A stretch of 32,000 nt of DNA from Candidatus Methylomirabilis limnetica (GCF_003044035.1 NZ_NVQC01000038.1:6669-38668), one strand, 5' to 3'. Positions 3,691 to 18,699 are shown, counted from the first letter of the stretch. Translations and numbers: made by a program. The notes: generated from the letters alone by a model not told the origin.

Positions 3691-5526
3691 TCACACGGCT
3701 TCCAATCCCGATAATGTCATTGATGGGCTTTCTCGATATCTCTTTTCGAACACTTGCTGCAACCAAATTTCGAGTGTTAGATACCGACACAGCATCTCGG
3801 CGTAGTTAATTCCATTCATATAGTCCAGGCCCCCCACAAGAAAAGCATCAAGAGCCTCGATCACTCGCCATCGTGGGTAGAATTCTGGATATAATGCGGC
3901 CGGATTCTCAAGAATTTGGGAAAAAAAGGAGCGAGCTGGCTCTTGGCGGATCCAATTTGGATAATCGGTGTAATTCGCATCTGATTTCCAATTAATTCCT
4001 ATCTTGGCCAGGCGCCAACTAGCGGCGCGATGGAGCCGACGCCTAAACTTTCCAGCCCGTTCTGCGACTGACGGCCAGTTAATGGGAACCCCGGTTTTTT
4101 GCCACGGAACTCCTTTATAGAACAATGGGAAGTTCTGGAGAAGCATCCGCTTGTAGATGAAACTTTTGTACCTTAATTCATTGGGAAGAGAATACACATA
4201 TTCAAAAAGTTTGTTATCATAAAATGGCGTGCGAAACACGACTGCTGTTTGCGCATACTTGATCCCAGTAAACGCGAATCTTCGGAGGCGATTTTGCAGA
4301 AAATAGAAATCAGACGTATGAAGTGCCGAATATTCCTTGAAACTTGTCAGGAGATCAGGATTACATCGCATAGCCTGGGCAACAAGTTCGCGGCTTGCTG
4401 GCCGATGAACCAGTTCCTGTGTCAAAAAACTGCCACCCAGAATGACATCGCCGGCATGTCCGTGCACAACAATGTCAAACCATTCGCGATACAGATTAAG
4501 CCCCTCAATGCCGTGCATGTGCAAAAGGGCCAGTTCGCCATCCGTCCACCAGACACCGCCAAGCCGGGGAAGCAACCAATTCTGAGCTGTCAACTCGACA
4601 ATGTGGTGTGTGGCCCTTTTAAGTTTTGCGACCCTTGCAGCAATCCGAATATCGTCGCAGCCCGGTTTGCCGAACGTGACAGTTTGGAGTGACGTACCCT
4701 GCTGGGGCATCGCTGCCAAGATTGCGCGTGAATCTAGACCTCCGCTTAGCTCGATGCCGAACCGATGCTGGCTACTGGACCGTCGCAGCACCGCTTGTAT
4801 GAATAGTCGACCAAGCTCTTCGGCGATTTCGGTGTTGTCAAATGGCCCCCTCAGAGGTTCTATGTCTGCCCACCACCAATAACGCTGCTTCTGCACAGAA
4901 GAGGTAGAGAGATTAACGGTTAATACGCTGCCAGGTGAAAGGAGGTGAACACCCAAAAACCAGGTTCGGTCCTCGAGCAAATAACCGATCTCGAGGAATT
5001 CGGTGATTGCCTCGGGATCAATACGAGGAGCAAAGAGGGGGAATGCGAGGAACGCCTTTAACTCGGAGGCCCAGACCACAGAGTCACCGACGATTGTCCA
5101 ATAGAGCTGACGCATGGCGTAACGATCGGTGATCAAATGCAGTGCTTGTCGCGGGCGGTCATAAATGACTGCAGAGTAATCCCCATCAATCCGTCGCAGA
5201 AACGAGAAGCTGCCATGATTTTGGATGAAGAGTTCGCCCAATAGGGCGGCGTCACTTGATATGCTCGCGTGCCGTCCGTTAGATAATTCGTCGCGGTTAT
5301 AAAGCTCGCCATCCAGCCACACCAAAACCTCACCTTCTTTGTGTGGCTGCGACTGAGATGGCAGGACGTTAATGTGAGATCTGGAAACAGCCACTAGGGA
5401 ATCAGTAAACAGTTGATCCCCTTTATAAAATGATTGGTGCGCAATCATGGCACGCATTTTTTCTAAGATGCGTCCCTCATCCTGTGCGAGCGCAGGACCA
5501 AGAGTGAATCCGACTAAGCCAGGCAT
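3691..5526 (-). CDS. asparagine synthetase B-like amidoligase (intact PP-loop synthetase domain; glutaminase domain lacks the N-terminal Cys)
   Basis: The 611-615-aa ORF aligns by eye to AsnB along the N-terminal domain: MPGLVGF vs MCGIxG; VWLDGELYNRDEL; IDGDYSAVIYD; ITDRYAMRQLYW; WASELKAF. 'IELSGGLDSRAILAAM' is the SGGxDS PP-loop. ATG 5526 is preferred over TTG 5538 because a GGGGG tract lies 5 nt upstream. Confidence 0.85.
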   Translation of the reverse strand: MPGLVGFTLGPALAQDEGRILEKMRAMIAHQSFYKGDQLFTDSLVAVSRSHINVLPSQSQPHKEGEVLVWLDGELYNRDELSNGRHASISSDAALLGELFIQNHGSFSFLRRIDGDYSAVIYDRPRQALHLITDRYAMRQLYWTIVGDSVVWASELKAFLAFPLFAPRIDPEAITEFLEIGYLLEDRTWFLGVHLLSPGSVLTVNLSTSSVQKQRYWWWADIEPLRGPFDNTEIAEELGRLFIQAVLRRSSSQHRFGIELSGGLDSRAILAAMPQQGTSLQTVTFGKPGCDDIRIAARVAKLKRATHHIVELTAQNWLLPRLGGVWWTDGELALLHMHGIEGLNLYREWFDIVVHGHAGDVILGGSFLTQELVHRPASRELVAQAMRCNPDLLTSFKEYSALHTSDFYFLQNRLRRFAFTGIKYAQTAVVFRTPFYDNKLFEYVYSLPNELRYKSFIYKRMLLQNFPLFYKGVPWQKTGVPINWPSVAERAGKFRRRLHRAASWRLAKIGINWKSDANYTDYPNWIRQEPARSFFSQILENPAALYPEFYPRWRVIEALDAFLVGGLDYMNGINYAEMLCRYLTLEIWLQQVFEKRYRESPSMTLSGLEAV

Positions 5527-5542
5527 GGGAACCCCCAAGCAA

Positions 5543-6970
5543 TTAGTTCGCTAAAAGCCGCCACAGATCTTTAATGTACTGCCGCTCAAAGTAACTGATT
5601 TGTAAAACAAAGATCGTGCTTCCAATGAGGCACAGAGAAAGAAGGAGCACAATATGGTTTCCAATTAAGACAGTCAGGATATTATTACTCAAAAGCACGG
5701 CGCTTGCCATAACGGTCACAAACGTCGCAGGGCGCACAAAAACAAGTAGGTACTGTCGCAATGGCAAATCTATCAGGCGGCAAACAATCCATACGAAAGG
5801 AAGGAAATACAGACCGACAAGGATCACATGTGAAATCGCCACAGCGGCGACACCATAATGCACAACTGCCGCGAACGTAATGGCGTTCAGGGTAGCACTA
5901 AAGCACTCCCACTTGAAATCGATGTCCACGCGACCCTTTGCCAGCAAGACGGAGCCAGACGGGTTAGCAAAAGACTTCAACACGCCGAGAAAGGCAAGGA
6001 TTTGAACCAAGCGGATGGCTTCCCCCCACTTTGGGCCGAATACGAGAGGTACCAAAACCGGTGCGGTCAGACCTGCTCCAATTAGCACTGGTAGTGTCGT
6101 GAAGGCCAGGAATTTGGCAATGGCGAGATACCCGCGGCGCAAGGCTGCATTATCAGACTGAACCTTCGCGAACAAGGGGAAGGCAACGCTGGTCAGAATC
6201 GGGTTGATCGTAGTCAAAGGAAGAACGACTAATTGATAAGCGAGAGTGTAACTGCCTAAGGCGTGGGGCCCGAGAGCGCGGCCGATAACAAGATAGTCGA
6301 TGTTAGCGGAAATGTAATTGACGAAGCGCTCACCCATCTGATAAAGACCGAAGTTGATGTAGCCCCTGAGATCGCGAAGGTCAAAGTGCCATGTCGGGTG
6401 CCAAGAGTGTCGGCCAAAAGCGACATACAGTGTCGCCGTAGTGGCTGCCGTGGCTAATTGCGCTAAAATGAGAGAGAAAACACCATGACCACGGAATGCG
6501 AAAATGACCGCTACGGCAGAGCCGATGGTTACAGCGATCATCTGGATGCGGGCGAGCAAAGCAAAATTGAGGTCTCTTTGCATGACATTGCGAAAAACGA
6601 AGCCGATAGCGTTAATTAAGAATAGGGGGGCACACCAGGGTAGCAACATTCTCAGTTGAGGTTCAGCATAGAAGGTCGAGAATAGTGGAGTCGAGGCGAT
6701 GATGAAGGTGGAGACCGCGGTTGCAAAGGTAAGATTGAGCCAATATAGGCTGGCCAACTGGTGAGAGGTAGTATCACGGCGTTGAATGATCGCATTACCT
6801 GTTCCTAGATCCATGAAGGCATCAATCAAGCCGAGCAGAATGGAAATCATTGCCATTAGACCGAAATCGACGGGTGTCAAAAGGCGGCTAAGGATCGCAA
6901 TCCTGAGCGTCTGAAGACCCACACGGAAGATGGCAGAAACAGTCGTCCACTTGACCCCATGTACAGCCAC
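5543..6970 (-). CDS. wzx: Wzx-type (MOP superfamily) polysaccharide/oligosaccharide flippase
   Basis: 475-aa ORF, highly hydrophobic throughout, about 12-14 predicted spans. The N-terminus is typical of 'polysaccharide biosynthesis protein' flippases (KWTTVSAIFRVGLQTLRIAILSRLLTPVDFGLMAM). GTG start; an in-frame TAA lies 60 nt upstream. Confidence 0.85.
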   Translation of the reverse strand: MAVHGVKWTTVSAIFRVGLQTLRIAILSRLLTPVDFGLMAMISILLGLIDAFMDLGTGNAIIQRRDTTSHQLASLYWLNLTFATAVSTFIIASTPLFSTFYAEPQLRMLLPWCAPLFLINAIGFVFRNVMQRDLNFALLARIQMIAVTIGSAVAVIFAFRGHGVFSLILAQLATAATTATLYVAFGRHSWHPTWHFDLRDLRGYINFGLYQMGERFVNYISANIDYLVIGRALGPHALGSYTLAYQLVVLPLTTINPILTSVAFPLFAKVQSDNAALRRGYLAIAKFLAFTTLPVLIGAGLTAPVLVPLVFGPKWGEAIRLVQILAFLGVLKSFANPSGSVLLAKGRVDIDFKWECFSATLNAITFAAVVHYGVAAVAISHVILVGLYFLPFVWIVCRLIDLPLRQYLLVFVRPATFVTVMASAVLLSNNILTVLIGNHIVLLLSLCLIGSTIFVLQISYFERQYIKDLWRLLAN

Positions 6971-7295: not shown

Positions 7296-8270
7296 TCACC
7301 GAATCAACCTTCTCAGGCGCCTATAAACGTGGTACATCGGATTCTCCCAACGCGATACCTTTACCCGCATTCGGGCGGCTCCAAAGGACTCCTTGAACGC
7401 CACAACGCCCGCATGTCCTCCGCTCGGATTAAAGTCGTACCACCGGTATCCGCACCCGTGAGCATCCCTGATAATCTCGGATTGCAAGAGGTTCGTCGGG
7501 CTATACGAGAAATACGATTCTAGCCCGGCACCATGCCACCAGACCGCGTGCCAGCCATTCCAGTAAAAAACCAAAGCGCCCGCCACCACCAGACCACGCA
7601 CTTCGGCAATCCACAGCCGGCACGCTTCACTTGACTGAGCGTACTCTCTTATGGCTTCGAAAAGTTGCCATGGGTATCTGCTCGTAACACTTCCCCCCCA
7701 CCGTCGGAGGCTGTCATGGTAGACTGCATAGTAGGCTTTGAAATCCTCCAGTGATTCCGCGATTCGGACTTTCACGCCCATCTTCACCGCCTTTTTTACA
7801 CTATACCGATTACCATGGCTGGTTCCTCGAAGCACCTGATCAATCCCGGCGGAGAGGTCGAGAACGTGCGTGAAGTCGTTACTTGCAAGGAACGGCCTGG
7901 GCAGCTCGAACGGCGCATACGGATTCTCAACAATCGTCAGTTCGATTGTACGAGGGCCGGTCAGCCTTGAAAGGATAGATTCGATCTCCCATTGAGCGAG
8001 ACGACGCGTCGAAATAACACCACCGTAAACATTTGCTGCAGTCATCGCGTACCCATGCATAAGCCCGCCCAGATGGATTGAAGTTTCGACGGCAGGCACG
8101 ATCGCCACGCGCTGGTCGTCCAGCAAGAAACCTCGTGCACATCGACGAACTGCTAGTCCGGCCGTTTCGAAGAGTCTGCCCCATGCCGGCGTGTGGAAAA
8201 ACGTCGCGTATTCGCAATTTCGCGCGACGTCCTCCCACAGCGTGTCCGATACCCATCCAAGCTCACGCAT
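7296..8270 (-). CDS. FemAB-like / GNAT-fold acyl(aminoacyl)transferase of the type found in EPS loci
   Basis: 324-aa ORF. N-terminal 'ATFFHTPAWGRLFE' and C-terminal 'FYWNGWHAVWWHGAGLESYFSYSPTNLLQSEIIRDAHGCGYRWYDFNPSGGHAGVVAFKESFGA' match the FemAB-family / BioF2-like acetyltransferase pattern from memory. Confidence 0.7.
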   Translation of the reverse strand: MRELGWVSDTLWEDVARNCEYATFFHTPAWGRLFETAGLAVRRCARGFLLDDQRVAIVPAVETSIHLGGLMHGYAMTAANVYGGVISTRRLAQWEIESILSRLTGPRTIELTIVENPYAPFELPRPFLASNDFTHVLDLSAGIDQVLRGTSHGNRYSVKKAVKMGVKVRIAESLEDFKAYYAVYHDSLRRWGGSVTSRYPWQLFEAIREYAQSSEACRLWIAEVRGLVVAGALVFYWNGWHAVWWHGAGLESYFSYSPTNLLQSEIIRDAHGCGYRWYDFNPSGGHAGVVAFKESFGAARMRVKVSRWENPMYHVYRRLRRLIR

Positions 8271-8344: not shown

Positions 8345-8983
8345 TTACGCCTCGATCAGGATGTCATAATACGGGACGTTAAGAAGATAGCTCTCATCTG
8401 CACGTTGAGCGAGAAACATTTCCCTTCGGGCCAGCCAGTTCAGAGAGCAAACGAATAGCCCCGGTAGACAATTAGCCATACGGATGAAAATAGTGGATAG
8501 CTTGGAATTTTGCCTACTGCGAATTCGCCGTACAGTTTTGACACGAAAGTCTTTCGACAGCTCGGGAATATAATCGGACTCCATGCTCGCTCGGGCCACG
8601 CTTCCTGAGGAACGACCAGAGAGGCTGGCCTGTTCGATGAGAATCTGACGTCCGCTTAGCACGAGAACGCGACGTATTTCGGACACAATTCGTGGGAAAT
8701 CTGAACCTCCCACGAGGTATTGCATGACCCAACATGATAGGCACGTATCAAAAACCACATCCGGACCAGCGAGAACTAGATCCAAGGAGTCGGCACACCT
8801 TACCGAAGGATGCTCGGCCCAGAGCTGCTGTCGCCGCTCTGGGCTCGATTCACAAATCCAGGAAAGGACGCCAAGGTCGGCGAAGTTTCGAACCAGGTTT
8901 TTTCCCTAGTAGCCAGCGCCGATACAGGCGATCACGGCCTTAGGCGGTGATTTCTCGCGTCCATCGCAGTTATCATTGGGCAT
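8345..8983 (-). pseudogene. Rossmann-fold, class I SAM-methyltransferase-like gene interrupted by an in-frame TAG
   Basis: Hand translation from ATG 8983 gives MPNDNCDGREKSPPKAVIACIGAGY*GKNLVRNFADLGVLSWICESSPERRQQLWAEHPSVRCADSLDLVLAGPDVVFDTCLSCWVMQYLVGGSDFPRIVSEIRRVLVLSGRQILIEQ... The TAG (8908-8906) falls inside the Gly-rich nucleotide-binding loop. The downstream part is track ORF 8345..8785. The first ~60 aa could also be read as a Gfo/Idh/MocA-type N-terminus. Confidence 0.5.
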
Positions 8984-8990
8984 CCAGTGT

Positions 8991-9350
8991 CTCCCCTCAC
9001 CCCCCCATCCTCACCTTCCCCCTCGTAGGGGGGAAGGGACAAATCCACCCACAGCTTCGACCTCTTTCCCCCTTAAAGGGAGATCACACTTTAGACCTCC
9101 TCCCCCCTTGAACGGGCCCACAACTGAATAAAGGCTCATGGTATGAAACTGTGGGTTACAGTTTCGACCTCCTCTTACCCCCCCATCCTCACCTTCCCCC
9201 TCGTGGGGGGGAAGGGAAGTGCGGTGGTACCTTCACCCGGTGGGGGGAAGGGATAAATCACCCACAGTTTCGACCTCTTTCCCCCTTGAAGGGAGATCAC
9301 ACTTTAAGCCTCCTCCCCCCTTGAGGGGGAGGATTGAGGTGGGGGGGAGA
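8991..9350. repeat. mosaic GC-rich multi-hairpin repeat cluster, two tandem composite copies
   Basis: 'ccccccatcctcaccttccccctcgtRggggggaaggga' occurs at 9001 and 9179. 'cacagYttcgacctctttcccccttRaagggagatcacactttaRRcctcctccccccttga' occurs at 9050 and 9263. The second copy also carries 'agtgcggtggtaccttcacccggtggggggaaggga' and 'gggggaggattgaggtgggggg'. Confidence 0.85.
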
Positions 9351-9383: not shown

Positions 9384-12254
9384 TCAGGCGCTCCGCCTTA
9401 ATATCGCTGCAATCCTGGCCTGAAGTTCATCCAATCGGAACGGCTTTGTGATGTAATCATCTGCGCCGGCCCTGAGTCCGGTGACGACATCGTCTTTGTC
9501 GCCGTATCCTGTCATCATGATAATTGGGATGTTTCGATACTGGGGGTGGTCACGCAACGCCTGGCACACCTGGAGACCATTTTGGTCCGGCAGCTTTACA
9601 TCGAGAAGGATGAGATGGGGGCGCTGACGCTGGATTCGATCGAATCCGTCGCGGGCGCTACAGGCTGTTGCCACCTCATACGTACCGTTCACGGCCTCTT
9701 TCACCAAATCGCAGAGGGTCTTATCATCATCAATGACCAGGATGCGATACTTTTCACCAACCTCAGGAACCGAGAATGCAGACTCCTTGAGAGAAGGAGC
9801 ATAACTCGGGATCATGTCATGTATCTGTCGCAGAAGGGCGGGCACGTCGCCAACCATCGCCAGAGTTTCGAGGCGGTTAAGACGCTCCTCCATATCCCCG
9901 AAGGAGGCCTGCGGCTGCCGCACCGCGAAGATCCGGTCATATTCTGACACCAGAACTTCGTCGTCGTCCCAAAGGCTCTCGTGCAACTTCTCCCCTGGGC
10001 GCAATCCTGTGTATCGCTTTGTGACTCGCGATGGGTTCAGACCTGACGTCAGGGCGAGGTTATTCACCAGTTCGTCGATCTTGACCGGCTCTCCCATGTT
10101 CAGGATAAACACGTCCTCCTCGCAGTCCATCGTACTGCTCTGCAACACCAGTCCAACCGCTTCGGGTATCGTCATGAAGAAGCGTGTCATCTGTGGGTCT
10201 GTGATAGTAATGGGCTCTCCATTCTCGATCTGCTTCTGGAAGAGGGGCACCACACTTCCGGCGCTGCCGAGCACGTTACCAAATCTCACGACAAAGAAAT
10301 GAGGCGTCCCGCTTAACCCGTGTGACTGTCGGAGGACTCGATTGAGGGCTATAATGTACATCTCGCTCACCTTCTTCGTCGCCCCCATCAAGCTTTTCGG
10401 CCTCACGGCCTTATCGGTTGAGATGAAGACGAAGGTGTTTACGTCAAACTTCTGCGCAACTTCAGCCAGACGTTTCGTCCCGATGATATTGTTGAGAACC
10501 GCCTCTCCCGGATGGTCCTCCAGGATCGGCACGTGTTTATAGGCTGCGGCGTGGAACACAACCTGCGGCCTCGTGCGTTCGAATATCTCCGACATGCGTG
10601 GAATATGCTTGATGTCCGCAAGGGCTGCCGTTACGTTGGCCTCGGGGGAATGTTGTCGGATCTCCAATGAGATGTGGTGCAGGGCATTCTCGGCGCGTTC
10701 GACCATGATGAGCGATTCAACACCACAACTGATAAGTTGCCGACATAGTTCTGAACCAATGGATCCCCCCGCTCCGGTCACCATGACCCGCTTTCCGCGG
10801 AAAAACTCGGTAATCGCCTCTCGGTTGATGGCCACCGGTTCTCGCCCAAGCAATTCATCAACGTTCACCTTTCGAAGATACCGCAGGTTTCCATCCCCCC
10901 GCACGAGCTGGGTAAAAGACGGGAGGGTCTTGAATTCCAGACCAGCCCCGGCGCAGATGCTGCCGATGCGGCGTAGCCCGTTACCAGTCGCGGTCGAAAT
11001 CGCGATGATCGCTTCCTGAATCGCATACGTCTTCGCGATGTCAGGAAGCCTGTCGATTGTGCCGAGCACAGGCCGGCCATGAATGGTCGCCCCCTGCTTT
11101 TTGGGATCGTCGTCGACGAATCCGATGAGTCCGTAACCCGACAACGGATTGCCAAGGATTTCCCTTGCGATCAATTCACCGGTTTCCCCTGCCCCGATAA
11201 TGACAACCTTGCGGCTATTGGTTGGGGATGTGTCACTACTCAGGTGTTTAGGCTGAAGGCTGAAGCTCGACCGCACGAGGAGCCGCATCCCTCCTGTAAG
11301 CAGGACCGTCAAAGGCATGGTCAATATGAGAATCGATCTCGGATAGCCATGCCATCCCATAAGGACCACGGCGAAACCGTGCAGACCTCCTCCTATAGCT
11401 GATGCCTTGATAATCTGCCACAGGTCCTCTACGCCTGCAAACTTCCAGATGCTCCTATGGGTCCGGAGCGTTACGAAGGATACGAGATAGGCCGCGCAGA
11501 CAATGGGAAGGCCGTAAAGGAGATGCTGCGTCTCCTTCTCAGGAAGTGCCCAATCAAACCTGACCATGAAAGCCGATAGGTTTGCCGCAATAACAGCGAG
11601 GCAGTCCAGCGTCAACCTCGCATATTTTTGTATGTGGGGGGGCGGATTCAGTGTTGTGAGGATCCTTTCCCCTATCGCTATAGGCGTTCGGATTACGTAC
11701 CAGAGATCACCGGCAAGCGAGCGCGTACGGACGTACTCTCGGTCGCTCTCGAGTTTCTCCTGCATGAACTGCTTGGTATAGTGTTCATAGACATCAACTC
11801 CAGGAGGAAACGTATCCGACTCACCTACCCAGGCAAGTTGCGTTGGACCAGTGATTCCCGGTTTGACTTCCAAGATCGCGCGTTGTTCTGGCGTGTACTG
11901 TTCAACTATTGCAGGAATCTCCGGACGAGGCCCGACAAGGCTCATGTCGCCTTTCAGGACATTGATGATCTGGGGGAGCTCGTCGATCTTCAGCAGCCTG
12001 AGCAATCTGCCCACCCGAGTGACACGCGGGTCGGCGTTCCCTGTCAGATGAGGGCCAACTTGGTCAGCATCGACAACCATAGATCTGAATTTCAGAATCC
12101 TGAAGGTCTTCCCGCGCCTCCCGACGCGCTCCTGAGCATAGAAGACTAAACCTGGGGAATCCAGCTTAATGGCGATGGCCACGAGGAGAAAGATGGGCAA
12201 CAGCAGCACAAGCGCCACCAGGGAGAATATGAGATCTATCGCCCGCTTCAGCAT
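9384..12254 (-). CDS. tri-domain fusion: PglC-type bacterial sugar (phosphoglycosyl) transferase + CapD/PglF-like NAD-dependent 4,6-dehydratase + CheY-like receiver
   Basis: 956-aa ORF with ATG 12254 preceded by GGAGAAGG.
- aa 1-200: LKRAIDLIFSLVALVLLLP...RILKFRSM...KIDELPQIINVLKGDMSLVGPRPE.
- aa ~205-330: hydrophobic CapD-type membrane segments.
- Rossmann motifs: 'VVIIGAGETG' and 'VMVTGAGGSIGSEL'.
- Dehydratase core: 'VFHAAAYKHVP', 'FVFISTDKAV'.
- aa 836-956: receiver with 'ILVIDDD', 'LILLDVKLPD', 'IIMMTG', 'ITKPF'. Confidence 0.9.
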   Translation of the reverse strand: MLKRAIDLIFSLVALVLLLPIFLLVAIAIKLDSPGLVFYAQERVGRRGKTFRILKFRSMVVDADQVGPHLTGNADPRVTRVGRLLRLLKIDELPQIINVLKGDMSLVGPRPEIPAIVEQYTPEQRAILEVKPGITGPTQLAWVGESDTFPPGVDVYEHYTKQFMQEKLESDREYVRTRSLAGDLWYVIRTPIAIGERILTTLNPPPHIQKYARLTLDCLAVIAANLSAFMVRFDWALPEKETQHLLYGLPIVCAAYLVSFVTLRTHRSIWKFAGVEDLWQIIKASAIGGGLHGFAVVLMGWHGYPRSILILTMPLTVLLTGGMRLLVRSSFSLQPKHLSSDTSPTNSRKVVIIGAGETGELIAREILGNPLSGYGLIGFVDDDPKKQGATIHGRPVLGTIDRLPDIAKTYAIQEAIIAISTATGNGLRRIGSICAGAGLEFKTLPSFTQLVRGDGNLRYLRKVNVDELLGREPVAINREAITEFFRGKRVMVTGAGGSIGSELCRQLISCGVESLIMVERAENALHHISLEIRQHSPEANVTAALADIKHIPRMSEIFERTRPQVVFHAAAYKHVPILEDHPGEAVLNNIIGTKRLAEVAQKFDVNTFVFISTDKAVRPKSLMGATKKVSEMYIIALNRVLRQSHGLSGTPHFFVVRFGNVLGSAGSVVPLFQKQIENGEPITITDPQMTRFFMTIPEAVGLVLQSSTMDCEEDVFILNMGEPVKIDELVNNLALTSGLNPSRVTKRYTGLRPGEKLHESLWDDDEVLVSEYDRIFAVRQPQASFGDMEERLNRLETLAMVGDVPALLRQIHDMIPSYAPSLKESAFSVPEVGEKYRILVIDDDKTLCDLVKEAVNGTYEVATACSARDGFDRIQRQRPHLILLDVKLPDQNGLQVCQALRDHPQYRNIPIIMMTGYGDKDDVVTGLRAGADDYITKPFRLDELQARIAAILRRSA

Positions 12255-12274: not shown

Positions 12275-12555
12275 TTTACCCCCCATCCTCACCTTCCCCC
12301 TCAAGGGGGGAAGGGATTTCTGAGGGATGGAGAGCCCACTGCCGCCTCCGCCTTCCGCTAACAAGAGTGGCCCGCAAGGGGGGAAGGGACACCCATTTCG
12401 GAATCCTCCCCCCTTGTGGGGGGGGTAATGCCTCTACTCGCAGGGGAGAACTCCAGACCTCCCGACAGACGGGCGGGGATAAACCCCGCCCCTACACCCC
12501 CCATCCTATCCTTCCCCCGCCAGGGGGGAAGGGAAGTGCGGCGGGACCTGTCCGG
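12275..12555. repeat. mosaic GC-rich multi-hairpin repeat cluster
   Basis: Contains 'ccccccatcctcaccttccccctcaaggggggaaggga', 'cctccccccttgtgggggggg', 'gggcggggataaaccccgcccctacaccccccatcctatccttcccccgccaggggggaagggaagtgcggcggg'. These are the same modules as at 9.0, 15.2, 15.6, 16.1, 17.0 and 18.9 kb. Confidence 0.85.
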
Positions 12556-12640
12556 ATAATGACAAAGCCCACCTGCCGCAATGGAGCGTAGCGGAATAGC
12601 GATCAGGTGCAGCACCTTGTTAGGCAAAGATTTCATCAAC

Positions 12641-12841
12641 TTATACGGTCTCAAATTGCAAACTCTTTAGCATTTGCACTGGGACGCGCTTGCTTAAGCC
12701 CAGTATCTCAACCCCGACTACGTTGTCATTTGCATCATAGTCGAGAATTACGCCTGGTTTAACCTCCTCGGACTCGACAATGGCTGACTCATCGAGCCGA
12801 AAATATAACGCGTCATTCTTGTGATCCACCTTTAATCTCAT
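12641..12841 (-). CDS. DUF2283-family small protein (putative antitoxin partner of DUF4258)
   Basis: 66 aa: MRLKVDHKNDALYFRLDES...GVILDYDANDNVVGVEILGLS, the typical DUF2283 pattern. Its start overlaps the upstream stop as ATGA (12838-12841). Confidence 0.8.
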   Translation of the reverse strand: MRLKVDHKNDALYFRLDESAIVESEEVKPGVILDYDANDNVVGVEILGLSKRVPVQMLKSLQFETV

Positions 12842-13086
12842 TGCGGCCTCCTTACTCTACGGTCAAAGAAGACAGTGACGATTCTCTGAGGCCGGGCATC
12901 CGGATTCACAACAACCCGTAAATATCGTCCACCGTGCTGCTCAATAGATCGAATATAGTGAAGCATTCCATCATCCTTTGGTTGCTTCTTCTCGGGATCT
13001 TCTAAAGCCAACTCTACCCAAGCTTCTTGAATGTTCCGCTCCCTTAGCATATCATAAGCATGTTCAGAGAACTCATACTCGATCAT
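12838..13086 (-). CDS. DUF4258-family small protein (putative toxin)
   Basis: 82 aa: EFSEHAYDMLRERNIQEAWVELALEDP...GRYLRVVVNPDARPQRIVTVFFDRR. This is the DUF4258 pattern (H-A-x-x-M-L-x-x-R-x-I ... LRVVV ... IVTV). Confidence 0.8.
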   Translation of the reverse strand: MIEYEFSEHAYDMLRERNIQEAWVELALEDPEKKQPKDDGMLHYIRSIEQHGGRYLRVVVNPDARPQRIVTVFFDRRVRRPQ

Positions 13087-13114
13087 GCCTGCCTATGTGC
13101 CGCAGGCGCCGGAC

Positions 13115-13178
13115 CTCCATCCCCCCCACCCAGAGGGTACCCGGGAGAAGGGATAGGAGAGGGAGAGCCTTCCCTCCA
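13115..13178. repeat. degenerate member of the GC-rich repeat family
   Basis: 'catcccccccacccagagggtacccgggagaagggataggagagggagagccttccctcc' resembles the 18700-18750 copy ('cccccccacccgtcccctccccctcggaggggggagggtaagagggagag'). Confidence 0.4.
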
Positions 13179-13277
13179 TCGGCACCGTTCGGTCACATCG
13201 TGAGGCGTGAGGAGGAGCCCCTTATGCCTTCCGATTGAAGAACCACGTAACTTGCTCATCCTCGCTTTCACTCTCCG

Positions 13278-13589
13278 CTATGTCGTAAGGCGGCTAGACC
13301 TGTGATTGAGCCATTTCTTGAAAGAGGCCTGACTTTCGCCTGAGGGTTTCCCAGCCAATAGACCCTCAACGCTCACATCCTCATCGATGTCTTCCCAGTG
13401 GATACCCTGCCCCTCACCAATCAGCCTCCAGTGACTTCGTTCTTGTTGGGTCGCATGCACAAGGCGAGGGAACCACGCAAGTGGGACTGAGATCGTCCGC
13501 CCGTCGCTCAAATCCACGCTCAGCGTATCGTCGGTTACCGTAATGCTTTCAGCATTTGGAACCTCAATCTCAACTGCCGAAGTAGTCAT
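13278..13589 (-). CDS. DUF2442-family small protein
   Basis: MTTSAVEIEVPNAESITVTDDTLSVDLSDGRTISVPLAWFPRLVHATQQERSHWRLIGEGQGIHWEDIDEDVSVEGLL is the typical DUF2442 pattern. ATG 13589 is preferred over 13622 because GGAGG lies 8 nt upstream. It overlaps the upstream gene by 20 nt. Confidence 0.8.
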   Translation of the reverse strand: MTTSAVEIEVPNAESITVTDDTLSVDLSDGRTISVPLAWFPRLVHATQQERSHWRLIGEGQGIHWEDIDEDVSVEGLLAGKPSGESQASFKKWLNHRSSRLTT

Positions 13590-13806
13590 TCCACGCCTCC
13601 ATGAATCTTGGGTCATGCTCATTCACGAGTTGCTGAATTCGACCGATTTCTGCTCGAGTAAATCTACCACTCTTTTGTAGCCGTATCGGATCCAGCCAGA
13701 ACTTTGCAATTTTGCTGTTCCGTTCCACATGAATGTGCGGCGGTTCATCTCGATCGCCGGCGTAGAAGAAGAACCGATACGGGCCAACTTTCAGTACCGT
13801 CGGCAT
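13570..13806 (-). CDS. DUF4160-family small protein
   Basis: 78 aa: MPTVLKVGPYRFFFYAGDRDEPPHIHVERNSKIAKFWLDP is the typical DUF4160 N-terminus. The ATG lies 5 nt after the DegT stop. Confidence 0.8.
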   Translation of the reverse strand: MPTVLKVGPYRFFFYAGDRDEPPHIHVERNSKIAKFWLDPIRLQKSGRFTRAEIGRIQQLVNEHDPRFMEAWNDYFGS

Positions 13807-13811
13807 GAGCC

Positions 13812-15005
13812 CTATCTCCGAAGGGTGTGGAGTGTGTCGTGTACGGACTCGATCACTCGCCCTATGTCGGCATTCGTCATCGCCGGATAGATTGGGAGCG
13901 AGACCGCACGCTCGAAGATATGTTCGGCGTTCGGAAACGCTCCCTGATGGTAGCCAAATGACCGCTGATAGACGGGGTGCAGATGAAGGGGAATGAAGTG
14001 AACGGAGGTCCCAATGCCCTTCTCTCCAAGGGAGCGAATGACCTCGTCTCGCCCACTAGCCAAGGCGGGAAGATTGAGTTGTAAGATGTACAGGTGCCAG
14101 GCGTGTGTGCCGTAGTCGGCCTCTTGAGGGATCACGCACGTCTCCAGACCTGAGAAGCTCTCGCTATACATCCGAGCAATCTCTCGCCGTCGCTTGTAAA
14201 AGTCATCCGACCTTCTGAGTTGCTGGATTCCCAACGCCGCAGCCAGATCGGTCAGGTTGTATTTAAATCCGAAATCGAGGATCTCGTAATACCAGTGTCC
14301 CTTATCGGAGTACCGGTTCCAGGCATCACCACTCAGACCATGGAGGCTCATCCGCTTCATTCTGGCGGCATGGTCGTCGCGCATCGTCGCGATCATCCCG
14401 CCCTCTCCAGTGGTTATCGGCTTGGTGGCATAAAAGCTGAAGGCCGTGAGATCACCAATAGCCCCGATCATCTTTCCTTTGTAGGTGGCATGAAGGGCAT
14501 GAGCGGCATCCTCAATGACGTGAAGGTGATGCTCCCTGGCAAGTTCCATGATCGGATCCATGTCACATGCCTGCCCGGCGATGTGAACGGGGATGATGGC
14601 CTTGGTCTTCGGCGTGATCAGCGGTGCTACCGTAGCCGCATCAATATTGAAGGTGTCAGGCCGGCAGTCGGCCAGGACAGGACGAGCCCCGAGGTAAGTC
14701 ACCACTTCTCCGGTGGCGGCAAACGTATAGGTGGGGAGGATCACCTCGTCGCCTGCCCCGACGCCAACTGCATCGAGAGCCAGATGGAGCGCGGCGGTGC
14801 AGGAGTTGACGGCAATGGCATGCTTGGCGCCAACGTAGGCGGCAAAGGCCTCCTCGAATTGTCTGACCTTCGGACCAGTCGTCAGCCAGCCGGAGCGAAG
14901 CACTTCGACGACTTCGGCGATCTCTTCTTCGCCAATCGAGGGGAGATGGAAGGGAATCTTTTGTTGTTGTCCGTTCTGCATGTTGTTCACAGTAACAAGC
15001 GGCAT
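13812..15005 (-). CDS. DegT/DnrJ/EryC1/StrS-family PLP-dependent sugar aminotransferase (PglE-like)
   Basis: 397-aa ORF. 'LPSIGEEEIAEVVEVLRSGWLTTGPKVRQFEEAFAAYVGAKHAIAVNSCTAALHLAL', 'HVIEDAAHA' and the Lys motif 'FSFYATKPITTGEGGMI' are family hallmarks. Confidence 0.9.
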   Translation of the reverse strand: MPLVTVNNMQNGQQQKIPFHLPSIGEEEIAEVVEVLRSGWLTTGPKVRQFEEAFAAYVGAKHAIAVNSCTAALHLALDAVGVGAGDEVILPTYTFAATGEVVTYLGARPVLADCRPDTFNIDAATVAPLITPKTKAIIPVHIAGQACDMDPIMELAREHHLHVIEDAAHALHATYKGKMIGAIGDLTAFSFYATKPITTGEGGMIATMRDDHAARMKRMSLHGLSGDAWNRYSDKGHWYYEILDFGFKYNLTDLAAALGIQQLRRSDDFYKRRREIARMYSESFSGLETCVIPQEADYGTHAWHLYILQLNLPALASGRDEVIRSLGEKGIGTSVHFIPLHLHPVYQRSFGYHQGAFPNAEHIFERAVSLPIYPAMTNADIGRVIESVHDTLHTLRR

Positions 15006-15045
15006 TTGCTATCTCTTGCCATCCATCACGCTCTTCTTCTTCTTC

Positions 15046-15188
15046 CTAGTGTAGTATATCCAACGATTCTTTTCAATCCGTTCGCCCTGAGCCTGTCGAA
15101 GGGTGAAGTATTTCAATTGGTTCCGTTCATGGGTTCGACAAGCTCACCACGAACGGATTGTAAAGGTATTTGTGAGGCACTACACTAG
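15046..15188. repeat. 143-bp imperfect palindromic (inverted-duplication) element, MITE-like
   Basis: Perfect 10-bp termini: 'ctagtgtagt' (15046-15055) / 'actacactag' (15179-15188). Perfect 11-bp inner pair: 'caatccgttcg' (15074-15084) / 'cgaacggattg' (15150-15160). A 12/13 pair: 'tgagcctgtcgaa' (15088-15100) / 'ttcgacaagctca' (15134-15146). Confidence 0.55.
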
Positions 15189-15207
15189 AGTCTTGGGCTC
15201 ATGGCAC

Positions 15208-15317
15208 GTGGGATGGGCGGGGATAAACCCCGCCCCTACATCCCCCCCATCCTCACCTTCCCCCGCCAGGGGAGAAGGGAAGTGCGGCGGTACCTTCACC
15301 CGGTGGGGGGAGGGAAG
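15208..15317. repeat. canonical ~110-bp unit of the GC-rich multi-hairpin repeat
   Basis: 'gtgggatgggcggggataaaccccgcccctacatcccccccatcctcaccttcccccgccaggggagaagggaagtgcggcggtaccttcacccggtggggggaggga'. Confidence 0.9.
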
Positions 15318-15325
15318 TATGATTG

Positions 15326-15544
15326 TTAGCCCTTGATAACTTGCTCCTCTATCGGGACCTTGCTTATGAGGAGCTCTTTCATGTCTACTTTCTTGCTAGC
15401 ATTATCAATGTCGATACCCACGATATTCCCATCAACATCATAATCGAGGATCACTCCTTCCGATATCTCTTTGCTGTCAGCGCTGACCTTGCCCGACAAA
15501 TCTATGTAGAGAGAATCAGTGTCTGGATAGTAGTTCAACCTCAT
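15326..15544 (-). CDS. DUF2283-family small protein, orphan (no DUF4258 partner adjacent)
   Basis: 72 aa: MRLNYYPDTDSLYIDLSGKVSADSKEISEGVILDYDVDGNIVGIDIDNAS. Paralog of 12641..12841. Confidence 0.75.
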   Translation of the reverse strand: MRLNYYPDTDSLYIDLSGKVSADSKEISEGVILDYDVDGNIVGIDIDNASKKVDMKELLISKVPIEEQVIKG

Positions 15545-15566
15545 GGCTTATACCCCCGATGTCGCA

Positions 15567-15699
15567 GGGGAAGGCTTTACGCTCTCCCGTGGGATGGGCG
15601 GGGATAAACCCCGCCCCTACATCCCCTCATCCTGTCCTTCCCCCACAAGTAGGGAAGGGAGGTGCGGTGGTACCTTCACCCGGGGAGGGGAAGGGAAAG
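15567..15699. repeat. GC-rich multi-hairpin repeat unit
   Basis: 'ggggaaggctttacgctctcccgtgggatgggcggggataaaccccgcccctacatcccctcatcctgtccttcccccacaagtagggaagggaggtgcggtggtaccttcacccggggaggggaaggga'. Confidence 0.9.
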
Positions 15700-15756
15700 A
15701 ATCGCTTGCCCCGCCGTGCTCATTCCAGCTTGCGAGAGGAGTCCAGATACGAGCGG

Positions 15757-16056
15757 TTAGGCTCTCTTTGGCTTCGCTGTATGCTTTTTGGGGAGTAGTG
15801 GGATTAAACACCGCAAAGCCCTATTTACAGACTCTGAGTTTGGGAAATATGCTCGAGTATCCGGCTCTAGAACCACTATGCCCTCTTTAGGCATCACGTC
15901 CTTAACAACAGTTGTACCATCTGCCTTACGGATAGTCATCGTATACCCAGCTTGCATAGTCCTATAATGTTTACCACGCACTCCACACCTAAAATCATAT
16001 TCGGTACGCATATCGTTGTCTTCCACCTGTACCATTTTAGTCGCCACCTTCTTCAT
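15757..16056 (-). CDS. small conserved protein, antitoxin-like, orphan
   Basis: 99 aa, with ATG 16056. 'EYDFRCGVRGKHY' and 'VVLEPDTRAYFPNSESVNRALRCLIPLL' match a motif pair (EYDF..G.RGK.Y ... V.LDPDV...FPdSeSVNeALR) that I recall from small proteins next to toxin genes. I cannot name the family with certainty. Confidence 0.5.
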   Translation of the reverse strand: MKKVATKMVQVEDNDMRTEYDFRCGVRGKHYRTMQAGYTMTIRKADGTTVVKDVMPKEGIVVLEPDTRAYFPNSESVNRALRCLIPLLPKKHTAKPKRA

Positions 16057-16071
16057 AAAGTTCCCGCTCCG

Positions 16072-16221
16072 ATGAGGTGGAGGGTATACTGGGAAGGCTT
16101 ACGCTCTCCCGTGGGATGGGCGGGGATAAACCCCGCCCCCACATCCCCCCCATCCTCACCTTCCCCCGCCACGGGGGAAGGGAAGCGCGGTGGTACCTTC
16201 ACCAGGTGGTGGGAGAGAGGG
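16072..16221. repeat. GC-rich multi-hairpin repeat unit
   Basis: 'gaggtggagggtatactgggaaggcttacgctctcccgtgggatgggcggggataaaccccgcccccacatcccccccatcctcaccttcccccgccacgggggaagggaagcgcggtggtaccttcaccaggtggtggg'. Confidence 0.9.
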
Positions 16222-16294
16222 TCCGATGGCGTGTAGTGAGCGAAACAGACCGCAAACACACTGTTATCCGAAGTTGCCCGGCTTGTTCCTACGA

Positions 16295-16540
16295 TCAGGC
16301 AAAGGCTTTTGCCGGCATCTCAATGTAGCGATCTGGTTCTTCTACCTTACCATGAATGGCAAAGAACTGCCGCTCGATTTCCTTGAGAACAACCGCATCG
16401 TAGTAGACCATGCCACAATTCAGGCATACTTCAACAGGGGTATTCGGCACCAGCAAGTATTTCCCCTCGTGGCTATAGAGATACTCAATCCTTCGTTCCT
16501 CATGGCGGTCACTGCCGCAGAAATTACACTCTATTGCCAT
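16295..16540 (-). CDS. YgiT/MqsA-type zinc-finger small protein (putative antitoxin)
   Basis: MAIECNFCGSDRHEERRIEYLYSHEGKYLLVPNTPVEVCLNCGMVYYDAVVLKEIE has two CxxC pairs with YgiT-type spacing. ATG 16540 overlaps the upstream TAG stop by 10 nt (aTGGCAATAG). Confidence 0.75.
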   Translation of the reverse strand: MAIECNFCGSDRHEERRIEYLYSHEGKYLLVPNTPVEVCLNCGMVYYDAVVLKEIERQFFAIHGKVEEPDRYIEMPAKAFA

Positions 16541-16848
16541 CCTCGTCTTTCTCCTCGCGTCCAAGGGTCAATGAACTTCGGCGGGCGTGGAATGTATACG
16601 GTGATAAGTACTACCTTTTCCCCACGCCAGCCGCATACGACGTGAATAGGTATCTTCCCAGCAAAACCTACGACCAGACAACTCTCACCGCGTCCAATAT
16701 CAGGATACTGCTCAAGGATCTTACTATTCAATAGAGCCTCTTCTACTTGAGCGAAGGTTAATCCGTCCGCTCTCCGCTCAATCTCGGCATGATGGCTGTA
16801 AACATACCTGTTGTCGCGAACCCTCGCCTTTATCTCTTCAATGTCCAT
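16531..16848 (-). CDS. DUF4258-family small protein (putative toxin), second paralog
   Basis: 105 aa: YVYSHHAEIERRADGLTFAQVEEALLNSKILEQYPDIGRGESCLVVGFAGKIPIHVVCGWRGEKVVLITVYIP. Confidence 0.8.
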   Translation of the reverse strand: MDIEEIKARVRDNRYVYSHHAEIERRADGLTFAQVEEALLNSKILEQYPDIGRGESCLVVGFAGKIPIHVVCGWRGEKVVLITVYIPRPPKFIDPWTRGERRGWQ

Positions 16849-16900
16849 CTCTGCTCATAACGATACCCACTACTACTGACGGCTCCCACGTCATGCGTCG

Positions 16901-17192
16901 CTCCTCCTCCCCCCATCCCAGCCTTCCGCCGCCAAGGGGGAAGGGAAGTGCGGTGGTGCCTTCACCTGGTGGGGGGAAGGGATGCCCATGGTGGATTTTT
17001 CCCCCTCACGCCTGACGCCCATCTCCCTTCCGAGGGGAGGATTCCCTCTCCGACCTCCTCCCCCCTTGTGGGGGAGGATTGAGGTGGGGGGTATACTGGG
17101 AAGGCTTACGCTCTCCCGTGGGATGGGCGGGGATAAACCCCGCCCCTACATCCCCCCCATCCTCACCTTCCCCCGCCAGAGGGGAAGGGATC
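16901..17192. repeat. mosaic GC-rich multi-hairpin repeat cluster (about two and a half units)
   Basis: Contains 'ccccccatcccagccttccgccgccaagggggaagggaagtgcggtggtgccttcacctggtggggggaaggga', 'cctcctccccccttgtgggggaggattgaggtggggggtatactgggaaggcttacgctctcccgtgggatgggcggggataaaccccgcccctacatcccccccatcctcaccttcccccgccagaggggaaggga'. Confidence 0.9.
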
Positions 17193-17202
17193 GGCATCAC
17201 AG

Positions 17203-18483
17203 TCAGTGGATCTTCTTGAGGGACACCTGGTCGATCCAGGCGGTTCCGCCGATGAGATTATCGAGTTTCTGGCTGGTCTCTCGCCGGATCTTGATGACAA
17301 TGGCCTGAGATCGCGGAGAGGTTTCAAACGGTACGCGCACCTCGGACCACGGGTGGTCGCCGATGTAGCTCTCGCTCGTGGCATGGCGTCTGCCATCGAG
17401 AAAATCTATTACCTCCAGATAGGGGCCGTTTGAGGTCGTGATGCCTGTGGTCTTGATGGAACCGCTCAGTAGGTAGCGAGTCCCCGGCATCACCGGAACC
17501 ACCTGAGAGGCAGCGGTCAGATCTAGATTTCGAGTGCCATCAAAGGCGATCTTGAGCGATCGCGTCCCCTCCGCGGAGCTCGACGCACCAACCCCAATCT
17601 CTACCCCAGCGCTCCGTCCAACCCGCCAATCGAATCCGGCCCCCCACGTCTCGTCTCGCTCGAACCCGCCATTCCACATTAGATTGTCAAGGTCACCGCC
17701 TCCCCTGCCAATCCCCCGTAATCGCAACAGCAGGTTCCAGGCAGACGTAGCCTCTGACAGGTCCTTGTGTTCAAGCATGAAATCGACATACGCTGAAGCG
17801 AGGCGGGGATCCACGCTGACAGCAGGGAGAGCGGTAAGCCGCTGCCACACCACCCTTCCGTTCTCAGCCTCCCCCTGCCTGATCAGGTAGTCCAGGTAGT
17901 CCGACAAGACCCCCGGCTCGGCGGGTAAGGTCGTGTCGATGAAATCGGCGGGCTGCATGAGGGTGTGGATAAGGGTGAAATAGGTCTGGCGCTGGCTTGG
18001 CTCGGTCATCACCAGATGTCGCAGGTTGGCGATGGCGGCCTCGTAGTCCTCAAGCTGGATCTGAAACAGTGCGGCCTCCCAACGCAGCCTCGCATTGCTA
18101 GGATTGAACCACAACGCAAGCCTGAGGGCGGGCTTGGCCTCCTGGACCTGACCTAACCACCAGTGGGTCCTCGCCACATCGAACCACGTGCGGCTGGAAA
18201 GGGGATTCTCCCAAAGGGCCAGTCGATAGTGACGCAACGCCTCCTGATAGTCCTGGAAGCTCACGCTGTATTGGCGAATCTTTCCCAGGTGCTGATGCTG
18301 GTACTGGGGGTGTTCTGGATGCGACCGCCAGGCACGGAGCAGTTCAGGGTCGTGGGGAAGAGCGGGGATCGCGAAGCTGGCCGCCCAGGGACGGACGATC
18401 ATCCAGGAGGCCAAGGTGGTAAGGCAGGCGAGCAGTAGGAGGGAAGCGGCCTTGCTTGACGACGTCCTGAACTCGAGGACCAT
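17203..18483 (-). CDS. membrane-anchored TPR-repeat protein with a C-terminal carbohydrate-binding-module-like (CBM4/9-type) domain
   Basis: 426 aa with an N-terminal hydrophobic anchor (AASLLLLACLTTLASWMIV). TPR-like helices: YQEALRHYRLALWENPLSSRTWFDVARTHWWLGQVQEAKPALRLALWFNPSNARLRWEAALFQIQLEDYEAAI. The C-terminus, 'WNGGFE...W...GTRSLKI...QVVPVMPGTRYLLSGSIKT', resembles a CBM_4_9 fold. Confidence 0.65.
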   Translation of the reverse strand: MVLEFRTSSSKAASLLLLACLTTLASWMIVRPWAASFAIPALPHDPELLRAWRSHPEHPQYQHQHLGKIRQYSVSFQDYQEALRHYRLALWENPLSSRTWFDVARTHWWLGQVQEAKPALRLALWFNPSNARLRWEAALFQIQLEDYEAAIANLRHLVMTEPSQRQTYFTLIHTLMQPADFIDTTLPAEPGVLSDYLDYLIRQGEAENGRVVWQRLTALPAVSVDPRLASAYVDFMLEHKDLSEATSAWNLLLRLRGIGRGGGDLDNLMWNGGFERDETWGAGFDWRVGRSAGVEIGVGASSSAEGTRSLKIAFDGTRNLDLTAASQVVPVMPGTRYLLSGSIKTTGITTSNGPYLEVIDFLDGRRHATSESYIGDHPWSEVRVPFETSPRSQAIVIKIRRETSQKLDNLIGGTAWIDQVSLKKIH

Positions 18484-18548
18484 GCGATCTCATCTCCCAT
18501 CCTAAAACTAGCGCGGGAAAACTATTCCATAGTCATTTTGTTGAGGGT

Positions 18549-18645
18549 CGATACCCCGCGGCTTGCCGCGAGTTCGTCATACCGGCGGAAGCCGGTATCC
18601 AGAGGGCCGACTGGATTCCGTGTCAAGCACGGAATGACGGGCCAG
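18549..18645. repeat. ~95-bp two-hairpin repeat (second family), copy A
   Basis: 'cgataccccgcggcttgccgcgagttcgtcataccggcggaagccggtatccagagggccgactggattccgtgtcaagcacggaatgacgggccag' is near-identical to 28897-28989. Perfect hairpins: ataccggc-ggaa-gccggtat and attccgtg-tcaagc-acggaat. The head 'cgataccccgcRgcttgccgcg' recurs at 18655-18677. Confidence 0.85.
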
Positions 18646-18699
18646 AACAGAAGACGATACCCCGCAGCTTGCCGCGGGGCAGTTCATTGGTTTTAAGGT

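Follow-up and report, generated by a model that had tools for sequence, protein, structure and literature searches.

A predicted phosphoglycosyl transferase, dehydratase, and receiver fusion as a candidate phospho-regulated enzyme of exopolysaccharide initiation in Candidatus Methylomirabilis limnetica

How bacteria throttle the initiation of glycan synthesis is an open question, and its first mechanistic answer, the EpsW-EpsZ system described in 2025, is recent. The initiating step draws on undecaprenyl phosphate and on a UDP-sugar whose modification is costly, both scarce and shared with peptidoglycan synthesis. A gene in a 32,000-nucleotide stretch of the Candidatus Methylomirabilis limnetica genome (the window) bears on this question: one open reading frame (ORF; 9384..12254, minus strand) encodes a phosphoglycosyl transferase (PGT), a transmembrane (TM) bundle with a DUF, a 4,6-dehydratase, and a receiver (REC) in a single chain of 956 amino acids. 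An earlier note, made from the sequence alone, had proposed that the two enzymatic steps are physically coupled and that both stand under direct phosphorylation control. The locus therefore asks whether the fusion is genuine, what each module is likely to do, and which step the receiver would govern. We consider it probable, with some reserve, that the product is a genuine multifunctional inner-membrane enzyme that starts Wzx/Wzy-type exopolysaccharide (EPS) synthesis and is gated by its C-terminal receiver acting as a phospho-switch.

The ORF listing bore out the single uninterrupted frame described earlier: 956 codons run from an ATG, preceded by an in-frame stop 7 codons upstream, to the stop codon at 9384-9386. 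The product is 100% identical to PTL34909.1/WP_107564021.1 of Ca. Methylomirabilis limnetica (Methylomirabilota/NC10). GenBank calls this entry "hypothetical protein" and RefSeq "SDR family NAD(P)-dependent oxidoreductase"; the PGT and receiver were missed, and the RefSeq name badly under-describes the fusion protein. A profile scan recovered the PGT, CapD-type, and receiver domains together in this one protein, with four Pfam modules above threshold (Bac_transf, CoA_binding_3 [PF13727], Polysacc_synt_2, and Response_reg). From the N to the C terminus, the order is a small monotopic PGT core, a four-helix membrane bundle, PF13727, a PglF/CapD-type dehydratase, a flexible linker, and REC. The motifs singled out in the earlier note (KIDELPQ, LVGPRPE, two Rossmann motifs, DDD, LILLD, MMTG, and TKPF) were all found where it had placed them.

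The fusion could in principle be a product of assembly or annotation, distinct genes having been run together through a frameshift or an overlooked stop. Full-length colinear homologs, 36-92% identical to the query, account for 31 of the 120 best clusters at 90% identity and come from four independent data sources (NCBI, ENA, JGI, and Logan assemblies). Because the colinear architecture recurs in independent assemblies, the fusion is not a local frameshift or missed stop. The domain junctions are conserved, no internal stop occurs across the 956 codons, and every module is folded confidently in the AlphaFold2 (AF2) model (mean predicted local distance difference test score [pLDDT] = 82; predicted template modeling score [pTM] = 0.53). 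An artifact is vanishingly improbable, being effectively refuted by the independent colinear homologs and the conserved junctions. We scored residue conservation in an alignment of 24 full-length colinear homologs, to which the statements on conservation below refer unless another alignment is named; functional residues of all three modules were invariant or nearly so at identities down to 36%.

The N-terminal module (residues 1-200; 11655..12254, minus strand) was delimited as a monotopic PGT core by Pfam, alignment with WbaP, hydropathy, and AF2. The Bac_transf profile (PF02397) matched residues 3-192 over 175 of its 179 positions (9e-60; 201.6 bits against a cutoff of 27). Within KIDELPQ, the D91/E92 pair (nucleotides 11979-11984) aligns with "DELPQ" of WbaP, and LVGPRPE contains P109-R110-P111 (nucleotides 11922-11930); D91, E92, P20, and the PRP are invariant. 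An N-terminal hydrophobic helix (residues 1-32 by hydropathy, 2-32 in the AF2 model) is a candidate re-entrant helix containing the invariant P20. Among sequences with solved structures, the catalytic domain of WbaP matched best (6e-32), ahead of PglC (3e-25). The earlier description of a complete, small PglC-type transferase thus holds for the completeness of the core and for its small-type size, but not for its kinship, which is closest to WbaP. We place the core in the monotopic PGT superfamily, with phosphosugar transfer as its predicted activity.

Four TM helices follow as a bundle at residues 206-332 (11259..11639, minus strand), with segments at 213-233, 243-264, 281-299, and 307-327 by hydropathy and helices at 206-232, 239-262, 275-298, and 306-332 in the AF2 model. 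Because the number of TM helices is even (a re-entrant-type helix plus four TM helices), the soluble domains are all predicted to be cytoplasmic. The bundle leads into PF13727 (CoA_binding_3), a Rossmann-like DUF at residues 340-445 (10920..11237, minus strand) that was identified by Pfam (residues 340-430, 5e-9), by its TIGR03025 match, and from PMC10312794, with the first Rossmann motif, VVIIGAGETG, at residue 349. Matches to TIGR03025 lie in both halves of the query; residues 200-460 match its positions 2-230, corresponding to the N-terminal half of large PGTs (7e-23). The TM/PF13727 module is common to PglF-like dehydratases and large PGTs such as WbaP for a reason that is not known, and it is the part through which large PGTs dimerize and are regulated (PMC10312794). 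By these matches, the fusion holds all three large-PGT modules (core, TM bundle, and PF13727) in permuted order, plus the dehydratase and the receiver. Because its catalytic core precedes the bundle and DUF, the protein is a permuted relative of the large monotopic PGTs and not a member.

Residues 461-814 (9813..10874, minus strand) form a predicted UDP-GlcNAc 4,6-dehydratase of the PglF/CapD type, an extended short-chain dehydrogenase/reductase (SDR) recognized by Pfam, alignment with PglF, and Foldseek. The earlier note had described CapD-type membrane segments, two Rossmann motifs, and a dehydratase core, and Pfam and hydropathy found all of these. Polysacc_synt_2 (PF02719) matched residues 490-778 (2e-104; 349 bits), starting at the second Rossmann motif, VMVTGAGGSIG (residue 490). 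The module aligned with Campylobacter jejuni PglF (5BJU) at 38% identity (1.4e-75), with STDKAVRP..MG.TK in register, and superposed on the same structure with a TM-score of 0.92 and a root mean square deviation of 2.2 Å (Foldseek). In this alignment, ISTDKAVRPKSLMGATKK of the fusion corresponds to ISTDKAVRPTNIMGCTKR of PglF, so that T613-D614-K615 (10410-10418), M623 (10386-10388), and K627 (10374-10376) fall on PglF T395, D396, K397, M405, and K409, a numbering confirmed by the names of the variants in the PDB (T395V, D396N/K397A, and M405Y). K615, M623, and K627 are invariant, and T613 and D614 are at least 90% conserved. Two C-terminal helices lie between the extended-SDR dehydratase and the linker (AF2/hydropathy layout). 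The profile match, TM bundle with PF13727, extended-SDR fold, Thr-Asp-Lys residues, and substitution of Met for the SDR Tyr together mark it as a predicted member of the PglF/CapD/WbpM family. We infer UDP-GlcNAc as its substrate and predict a retaining 4-keto-6-deoxy product, with which an adjacent DegT aminotransferase gene is consistent.

A variable linker at residues 815-835 (9750..9812, minus strand; AF2 and column entropy) is predicted to be disordered, with pLDDT below 50 at residues 824-833 and a mean column entropy of 2.29. It tethers the receiver (residues 836-956; 9387..9749, minus strand), which is supported by Pfam, by NCBIfam and PDB matches, and by AF2: Response_reg (PF00072) matched residues 838-948 (5e-28; 97.9 bits against a cutoff of 30.2), and the model contains the (βα)5 fold, with five strand-helix units across residues 836-955. 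All phospho-acceptor residues claimed earlier were confirmed, namely D842 and D843 (9726-9731) of the DDD at residues 842-844, D885 of LILLD (9600-9602), T915 of MMTG (9510-9512), and K937 of TKPF (9444-9446); Y934 lies at 9453-9455. In a separate receiver alignment of 33 sequences (21 tripartite and 12 CapD-REC proteins), D885 was present in 33/33 and D843 in 32/33, and the quintet was complete in 10 of the 12 CapD-REC proteins and in 21/21 tripartite homologs. Loss of the acidic pocket, which the earlier note had named as grounds for abandoning its reading, was therefore not observed. A pseudo-receiver was considered and is ruled out by the conserved phospho-acceptor residues. The lowest-entropy elements of the receiver are the DDD loop, β3, β4, the α4-β5 loop, and KPF. 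Receiver identity across homologs matches that of the enzyme domains (for example, 68% for the PGT, 66% for the dehydratase, and 66% for REC in P0025), which points to purifying selection on a working receiver.

The best NCBIfam and PDB matches of the receiver belong to the OmpR/PhoB family (the PhoB, MtrA, and RpaB receivers). The segment GADDYITKPFRLDELQARIAAILRR matches the OmpR/PhoB α4-β5-α5 signature, the pattern among homologs being GADDYxTKPFxxxELxARIxAxLRR, and conservation is at least 90% at D932, D933, E943, R947, R953, and R954. The α4-β5-α5 face reportedly mediates phospho-dependent dimers in this family (Toro-Roman/Stock 2005). The fusion protein ends at its receiver, without a winged-helix DNA-binding domain, and so falls outside the OmpR/PhoB family, though its receiver may work as the receivers of that family do.

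Architectures were classed by BLAST with the four query modules, in the 120 best clusters at 90% identity and in the 150 best representatives at 50% identity from a database of 1.84 billion. Joining of PGT and dehydratase is common, and the receiver is the rare element: PGT plus CapD accounted for 68/120 clusters and 51/150 representatives, CapD alone for 10/120 and 78/150, CapD plus REC for 9/120 and 9-10/150, and the tripartite form for 31/120 and 1/150. The earlier note started from a PGT and a dehydratase in different proteins, which is true for Campylobacter but does not hold generally, given the first of these counts. A contig scan with generic patterns found no REC in 80 loci of relatives among the matches listed, a set without the source genome, which is weak evidence of rarity. 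The CapD-REC genes checked in genomic context had no fused PGT, and one of them, at the P0040 locus, is accompanied by a gene for a polytopic Glycos_transf_4 and by no monotopic PGT. In a neighbor-joining tree of the dehydratase domain, calculated without support values, most REC-bearing proteins fell in one clade, with tripartite and CapD-REC forms interleaved, and there were three further tripartite/CapD-REC sister pairs. Because CapD-REC proteins without a PGT occur and are interleaved with tripartite forms, the stable evolutionary unit is dehydratase plus receiver, with the PGT gained or lost repeatedly.

The fusion gene lies within a minus-strand Wzx/Wzy EPS cluster that also encodes a DegT/PseC-like sugar 4-aminotransferase (13812..15005, minus strand; Pfam DegT, 4e-136; NCBIfam PseC-like, 1.6e-116, below its cutoff). 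Among relatives with upstream sequence preserved (L081, L082, L084, L085, L089, and the P0025 locus), the DegT gene always adjoins the fusion gene, with a spacing of 0-20 nucleotides or an overlap; in this genome alone, 1.56 kb of toxin-antitoxin (TA)-like modules and a repeat family part the two. The adjacency supports the order dehydratase, aminotransferase, (acylation), PGT. In the pathway that we propose, the first EPS sugar would be a 4-amino-4,6-dideoxy-N-acetylhexosamine derivative: the PglF-type domain would convert UDP-GlcNAc to a UDP-4-keto-6-deoxy sugar, the neighboring DegT enzyme would aminate this keto sugar, the acyltransferase of the cluster would probably modify the aminated sugar further, and the N-terminal monotopic PGT would transfer the phosphosugar to undecaprenyl phosphate.

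The receiver would serve as a working phospho-switch on its flexible tether. Phosphorylation of Asp885 would promote OmpR/PhoB-style REC dimerization through the α4-β5-α5 face, a model that we propose because of the OmpR/PhoB-like signature, the conserved charged face, and the flexible tether. Dimerization would then change the oligomeric or active state of the protein, activating or inhibiting chiefly the dehydratase/PF13727 module, the part that co-evolves with the receiver. This would amount to posttranslational gating of both the supply of EPS precursor and the commitment of undecaprenyl phosphate, as a version in cis of the action of EpsW~P on EpsZ. In Myxococcus xanthus, EpsW~P activates the PGT EpsZ posttranslationally, and EpsW has been modeled to contact both the PF13727 DUF and the catalytic domain of EpsZ, favoring a dimer (Schwabe et al., mBio 2025, PMC12802240). 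Tyrosine phosphorylation has also been suggested to stimulate the activity of Staphylococcus aureus CapM (PMC10312794).

Several observations, some concerning the enzyme and others the source of phosphate, weigh against this gated-enzyme reading. The PGT core lacks a GLLLP-type motif (G[LIVM]3P) within residues 1-210 in all 24 homologs, where the mobile loop instead reads GPxLTG; in PglC-type PGTs specific for N,N'-diacetylbacillosamine, the GLLLP mobile-loop motif is co-conserved with the aromatic box, with a profile score of at least 200 (Anderson et al. 2023, PMC10186338), and we reject assignment to that type because the motif is missing. The AF2 model, at its pTM of 0.53, carries no information on contacts between domains. 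Small monotopic PGTs are reported to be monomeric, so dimerization need not affect the PGT (PMC12802240). In an alternative reading, the receiver governs the supply of the modified nucleotide sugar only, the PGT being an unregulated passenger fused for channeling or colocalization. CapD-REC proteins without a PGT outnumber the tripartite form among the 50% representatives (9-10 versus 1 in the best 150), the two forms are interleaved or sisters in at least four places in the dehydratase tree, the P0040 locus pairs its CapD-REC with a polytopic transferase, and the tether joins REC to the dehydratase C terminus, some 600 residues away from the PGT. However, the tree has no support values, the module beside the dehydratase is the very PF13727/TM module for dimerization and regulation of large PGTs, and the modeled EpsZ-EpsW complex has the receiver touching both the DUF and the PGT domain. 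A throttled dehydratase would throttle the PGT substrate anyway, so that the readings differ in mechanism alone. We regard control of the dehydratase alone as unlikely, though deserving of serious weight. Of the coupling proposed in the earlier note, the physical joining of the modules in a conserved, intact protein stands; that both steps are controlled extrapolates, because the receiver is tied to the dehydratase and CapD-REC without a PGT occurs in at least nine of the 50% representatives.

The remaining contrary points concern the phosphodonor. Relatives encode a soluble GAF-GAF-HATPase_c protein of 571-585 residues beside the REC-bearing gene, either directly upstream of CapD-REC (L087/88, with coordinates 8277-9992 in L087, and the P0040 locus) or parted from the tripartite gene only by DegT (L081, 7098-8825; L085, 7074-8810). 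This family is small and discrete (about 55 clusters at 90% identity); its members do not match HisKA of Pfam, and no histidine is invariant among 29 sequences. The sole H-box candidate is His in 18/29 and Ser, Gly, Tyr, or Gln in 11/29, and it is Ser precisely in the subgroup beside tripartite genes; the partner may be a non-canonical or degenerate kinase. The partner also decays along the lineage. Beside fusions with 54-56% identity to the query, its gene is intact; at 60% identity (L089, 7166-8844; P0029) it is split (332 + 226 residues), and at 63% (P0025 locus) it is truncated (333 + 78 residues). From 66% (L084) up to the 100% of the window it is absent, and in the window its slot is taken up by TA-like genes. 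A tblastn search with the GAF-HATPase proteins of relatives found no match in the 32-kb window and no pseudogene remnant in 15005-17203, and the window encodes three receiver domains and no kinase. For the direct posttranslational control proposed earlier, the precedent in trans from EpsW and EpsZ stands, and phosphorylation of this receiver stays a prediction. The Methylomirabilis receiver might accordingly have ceased to be a phospho-switch after kinase loss and persist as a structural or constitutive domain or a phosphate sink, as the absence, splitting, or truncation of the kinase-like gene and the interruption of the operon by TA-like modules, repeats, and a transposase would suggest. Yet the quintet is intact in the kinase-less P0001, P0002, P0004, P0008, P0009, P0012, P0014, and P0018, and REC identity on a par with the enzyme domains indicates that purifying selection continues. 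Unlinked kinases or acetyl phosphate commonly act as donors to orphan receivers, and the view of the genome here spans 32 kb. Loss of the switch is, in our judgment, quite improbable, and a receiver-gated enzyme remains the reading that we favor.

A broader proposal, which we offer tentatively as a possibility short of probable, is that CapD-REC (with or without the PGT) and the adjacent GAF-GAF-HATPase form a previously undescribed enzyme-level two-component module for EPS initiation. A cytoplasmic small molecule sensed by the GAF domains would set receiver phosphorylation, and switching would proceed by dimerization via PF13727/TM; the partner would be non-canonical and dispensable, having been lost in Methylomirabilis while the receiver was rewired to another phosphodonor. 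The partner genes of L089 and P0025 have the appearance of intermediate stages of loss, and the adjacent fusions keep an intact receiver. The most distant tripartite homolog (L082, P0107, 36% identity) has a different signaling partner set beside the same enzyme architecture, namely a GAF + HD-GYP-type (HD_5) neighbor followed by a PAS-HisKA-HATPase kinase (12951-14594 and 15705-19106).

A switch covalently joined to the precursor-making and lipid-committing enzymes would offer a self-contained and biochemically tractable test of receiver-controlled glycan initiation. Addition of a receiver to a PGT-dehydratase fusion is rare; with it, polysaccharide synthesis would be open to being switched on and off directly. 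Such a fusion could explain the TM/PF13727 module common to PglF-like dehydratases and large PGTs, would add a new enzymatic output class to the response regulators, and bears on how nitrite-dependent methane oxidizers form aggregates and biofilms.

The surrounding cluster begins with a LuxR-type response regulator (24737-25390) and a 162-residue single-domain receiver (24089-24577), followed by a 439-residue protein, a Wza-like exporter (21393-22661), a Wzc-like chain-length/tyrosine-kinase protein (18894-21293), a TPR protein, and small TA-like genes. It continues with the DegT/PseC-like aminotransferase, two TA-like pairs, the fusion, a FemAB/GNAT-like acyltransferase (FemAB/Acetyltransf_6; 7296-8270), the Wzx flippase (5543-6970), an AsnB-like amidotransferase (3691-5538), a transposase, and GT4, all features with coordinates in this list lying on the minus strand. 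The receiver and LuxR-type pair also heads the L084 cluster, and by gene position alone the single-domain receiver is placed like an EpsW-type regulator. The 439-residue ORF (22728-24047), upstream of Wza, matched neither Pfam nor NCBIfam and has a 435-residue counterpart in L084; its place in L087 and the P0025 locus is taken by a gene for a BBP2_2 outer-membrane β-barrel, and the 439-residue protein may be a divergent outer-membrane component. ORF 8345-8785 was considered as a methyltransferase remnant by comparison with the region downstream of the fusion in L081 and was rejected, with no Pfam match and no similarity. A promoter and terminator scan around the fusion gene gave only weak consensus matches.

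The EPS operon holds four TA-like modules (12641-13806 and 15326-16848): DUF4258/DUF2283, DUF4160/DUF2442, a lone DUF2283, and a YokU/MqsA-like gene with DUF4258. The first two are the pairs that lie between DegT and the fusion (12641..13806, minus strand) in this genome only. The small-gene group at 15005-17203 occupies the slot of the GAF-HATPase gene of relatives, which in L084 is taken by YokU and DUF2283 genes. An intergenic repeat family (9005-9200, 12279-12570, 15170-15700, 16073-16220, 16909-17225, and 18829-18906) occurs on both sides of the fusion gene and of every small TA-like module in the cluster. Its core CCATCCTCACCTTCCCCC occurs in 9 copies, all on the plus strand (expected, 0.06), and a second core, GGGCGGGGATAAACCCCGCCCC, in 6 copies (expected, 0); the repeat looks like an element of the repetitive extragenic palindrome/miniature inverted-repeat transposable element type associated with insertions. 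A Mutator-family transposase ORF (1676-2764) between the AsnB-like and GT4 genes is further evidence of cluster remodeling in this genome.

Literature searches on CapD with a receiver and on Methylomirabilis EPS regulation found no characterization of the PGT-CapD-REC architecture. The general idea of such fusions is not new: as related in PMC12802240, fusions of monotopic PGTs with sugar-modifying enzymes and with receivers were catalogued bioinformatically by O'Toole et al. (2021), and the mechanism of receiver fusions to small monotopic PGTs is not known (PMC12802240). What is added here is that the receiver goes with the dehydratase, that a non-canonical GAF-HATPase partner accompanies them, and that this partner is lost in the lineage of the window while the receiver stays constrained. 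In the Bi-PGT class (O'Toole, Imperiali, and Allen, PNAS 2021), as later papers describe it (PMC10312794, PMC11626204, PMC12802240), a small monotopic PGT core is likewise fused to a pathway enzyme or regulatory domain, with sugar-modifying enzymes and response-regulator receivers both among the partners. Set against that description, the fusion differs in carrying both kinds of partner in one chain and in that the sugar-modifying partner is a membrane dehydratase of the PglF type, full-length and with a TM bundle and PF13727 of its own.

Comparison with other known systems places each part of the protein. PglF of C. jejuni, CapD of S. aureus, and WbpM of Pseudomonas aeruginosa share with it four TM helices, PF13727, and an extended SDR with the T-D-K triad and Met for the SDR Tyr, but stand alone, without an N-terminal PGT or a C-terminal receiver. 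The large monotopic PGTs (WbaP/WcaJ/CpsE) likewise combine the TM bundle, PF13727 DUF, and PGT core, whereas the core is C-terminal in WbaP and N-terminal in the fusion, and their DUF leads into the PGT core rather than into a dehydratase. Response regulators with enzymatic output (CheB, PleD, and RpfG) resemble the fusion in joining a complete-pocket REC to an enzyme and not to a DNA-binding domain; their REC is N-terminal, however, and the output of the fusion would be a membrane-embedded two-enzyme module for glycan initiation. We know of no membrane glycan-initiation output among the characterized response-regulator output classes, and the literature searches brought up none. The closest functional parallel is EpsW and EpsZ, in which a phosphorylated receiver acts posttranslationally on the PGT that initiates an EPS pathway of the Wzx/Wzy type, as is only proposed for the fusion. 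EpsW stands apart as a single-domain protein served by the Dif chemosensory kinase, and EpsZ is a canonical large PGT without a dehydratase, whereas the receiver of the fusion is covalent, of the OmpR/PhoB type, and attached to the dehydratase.

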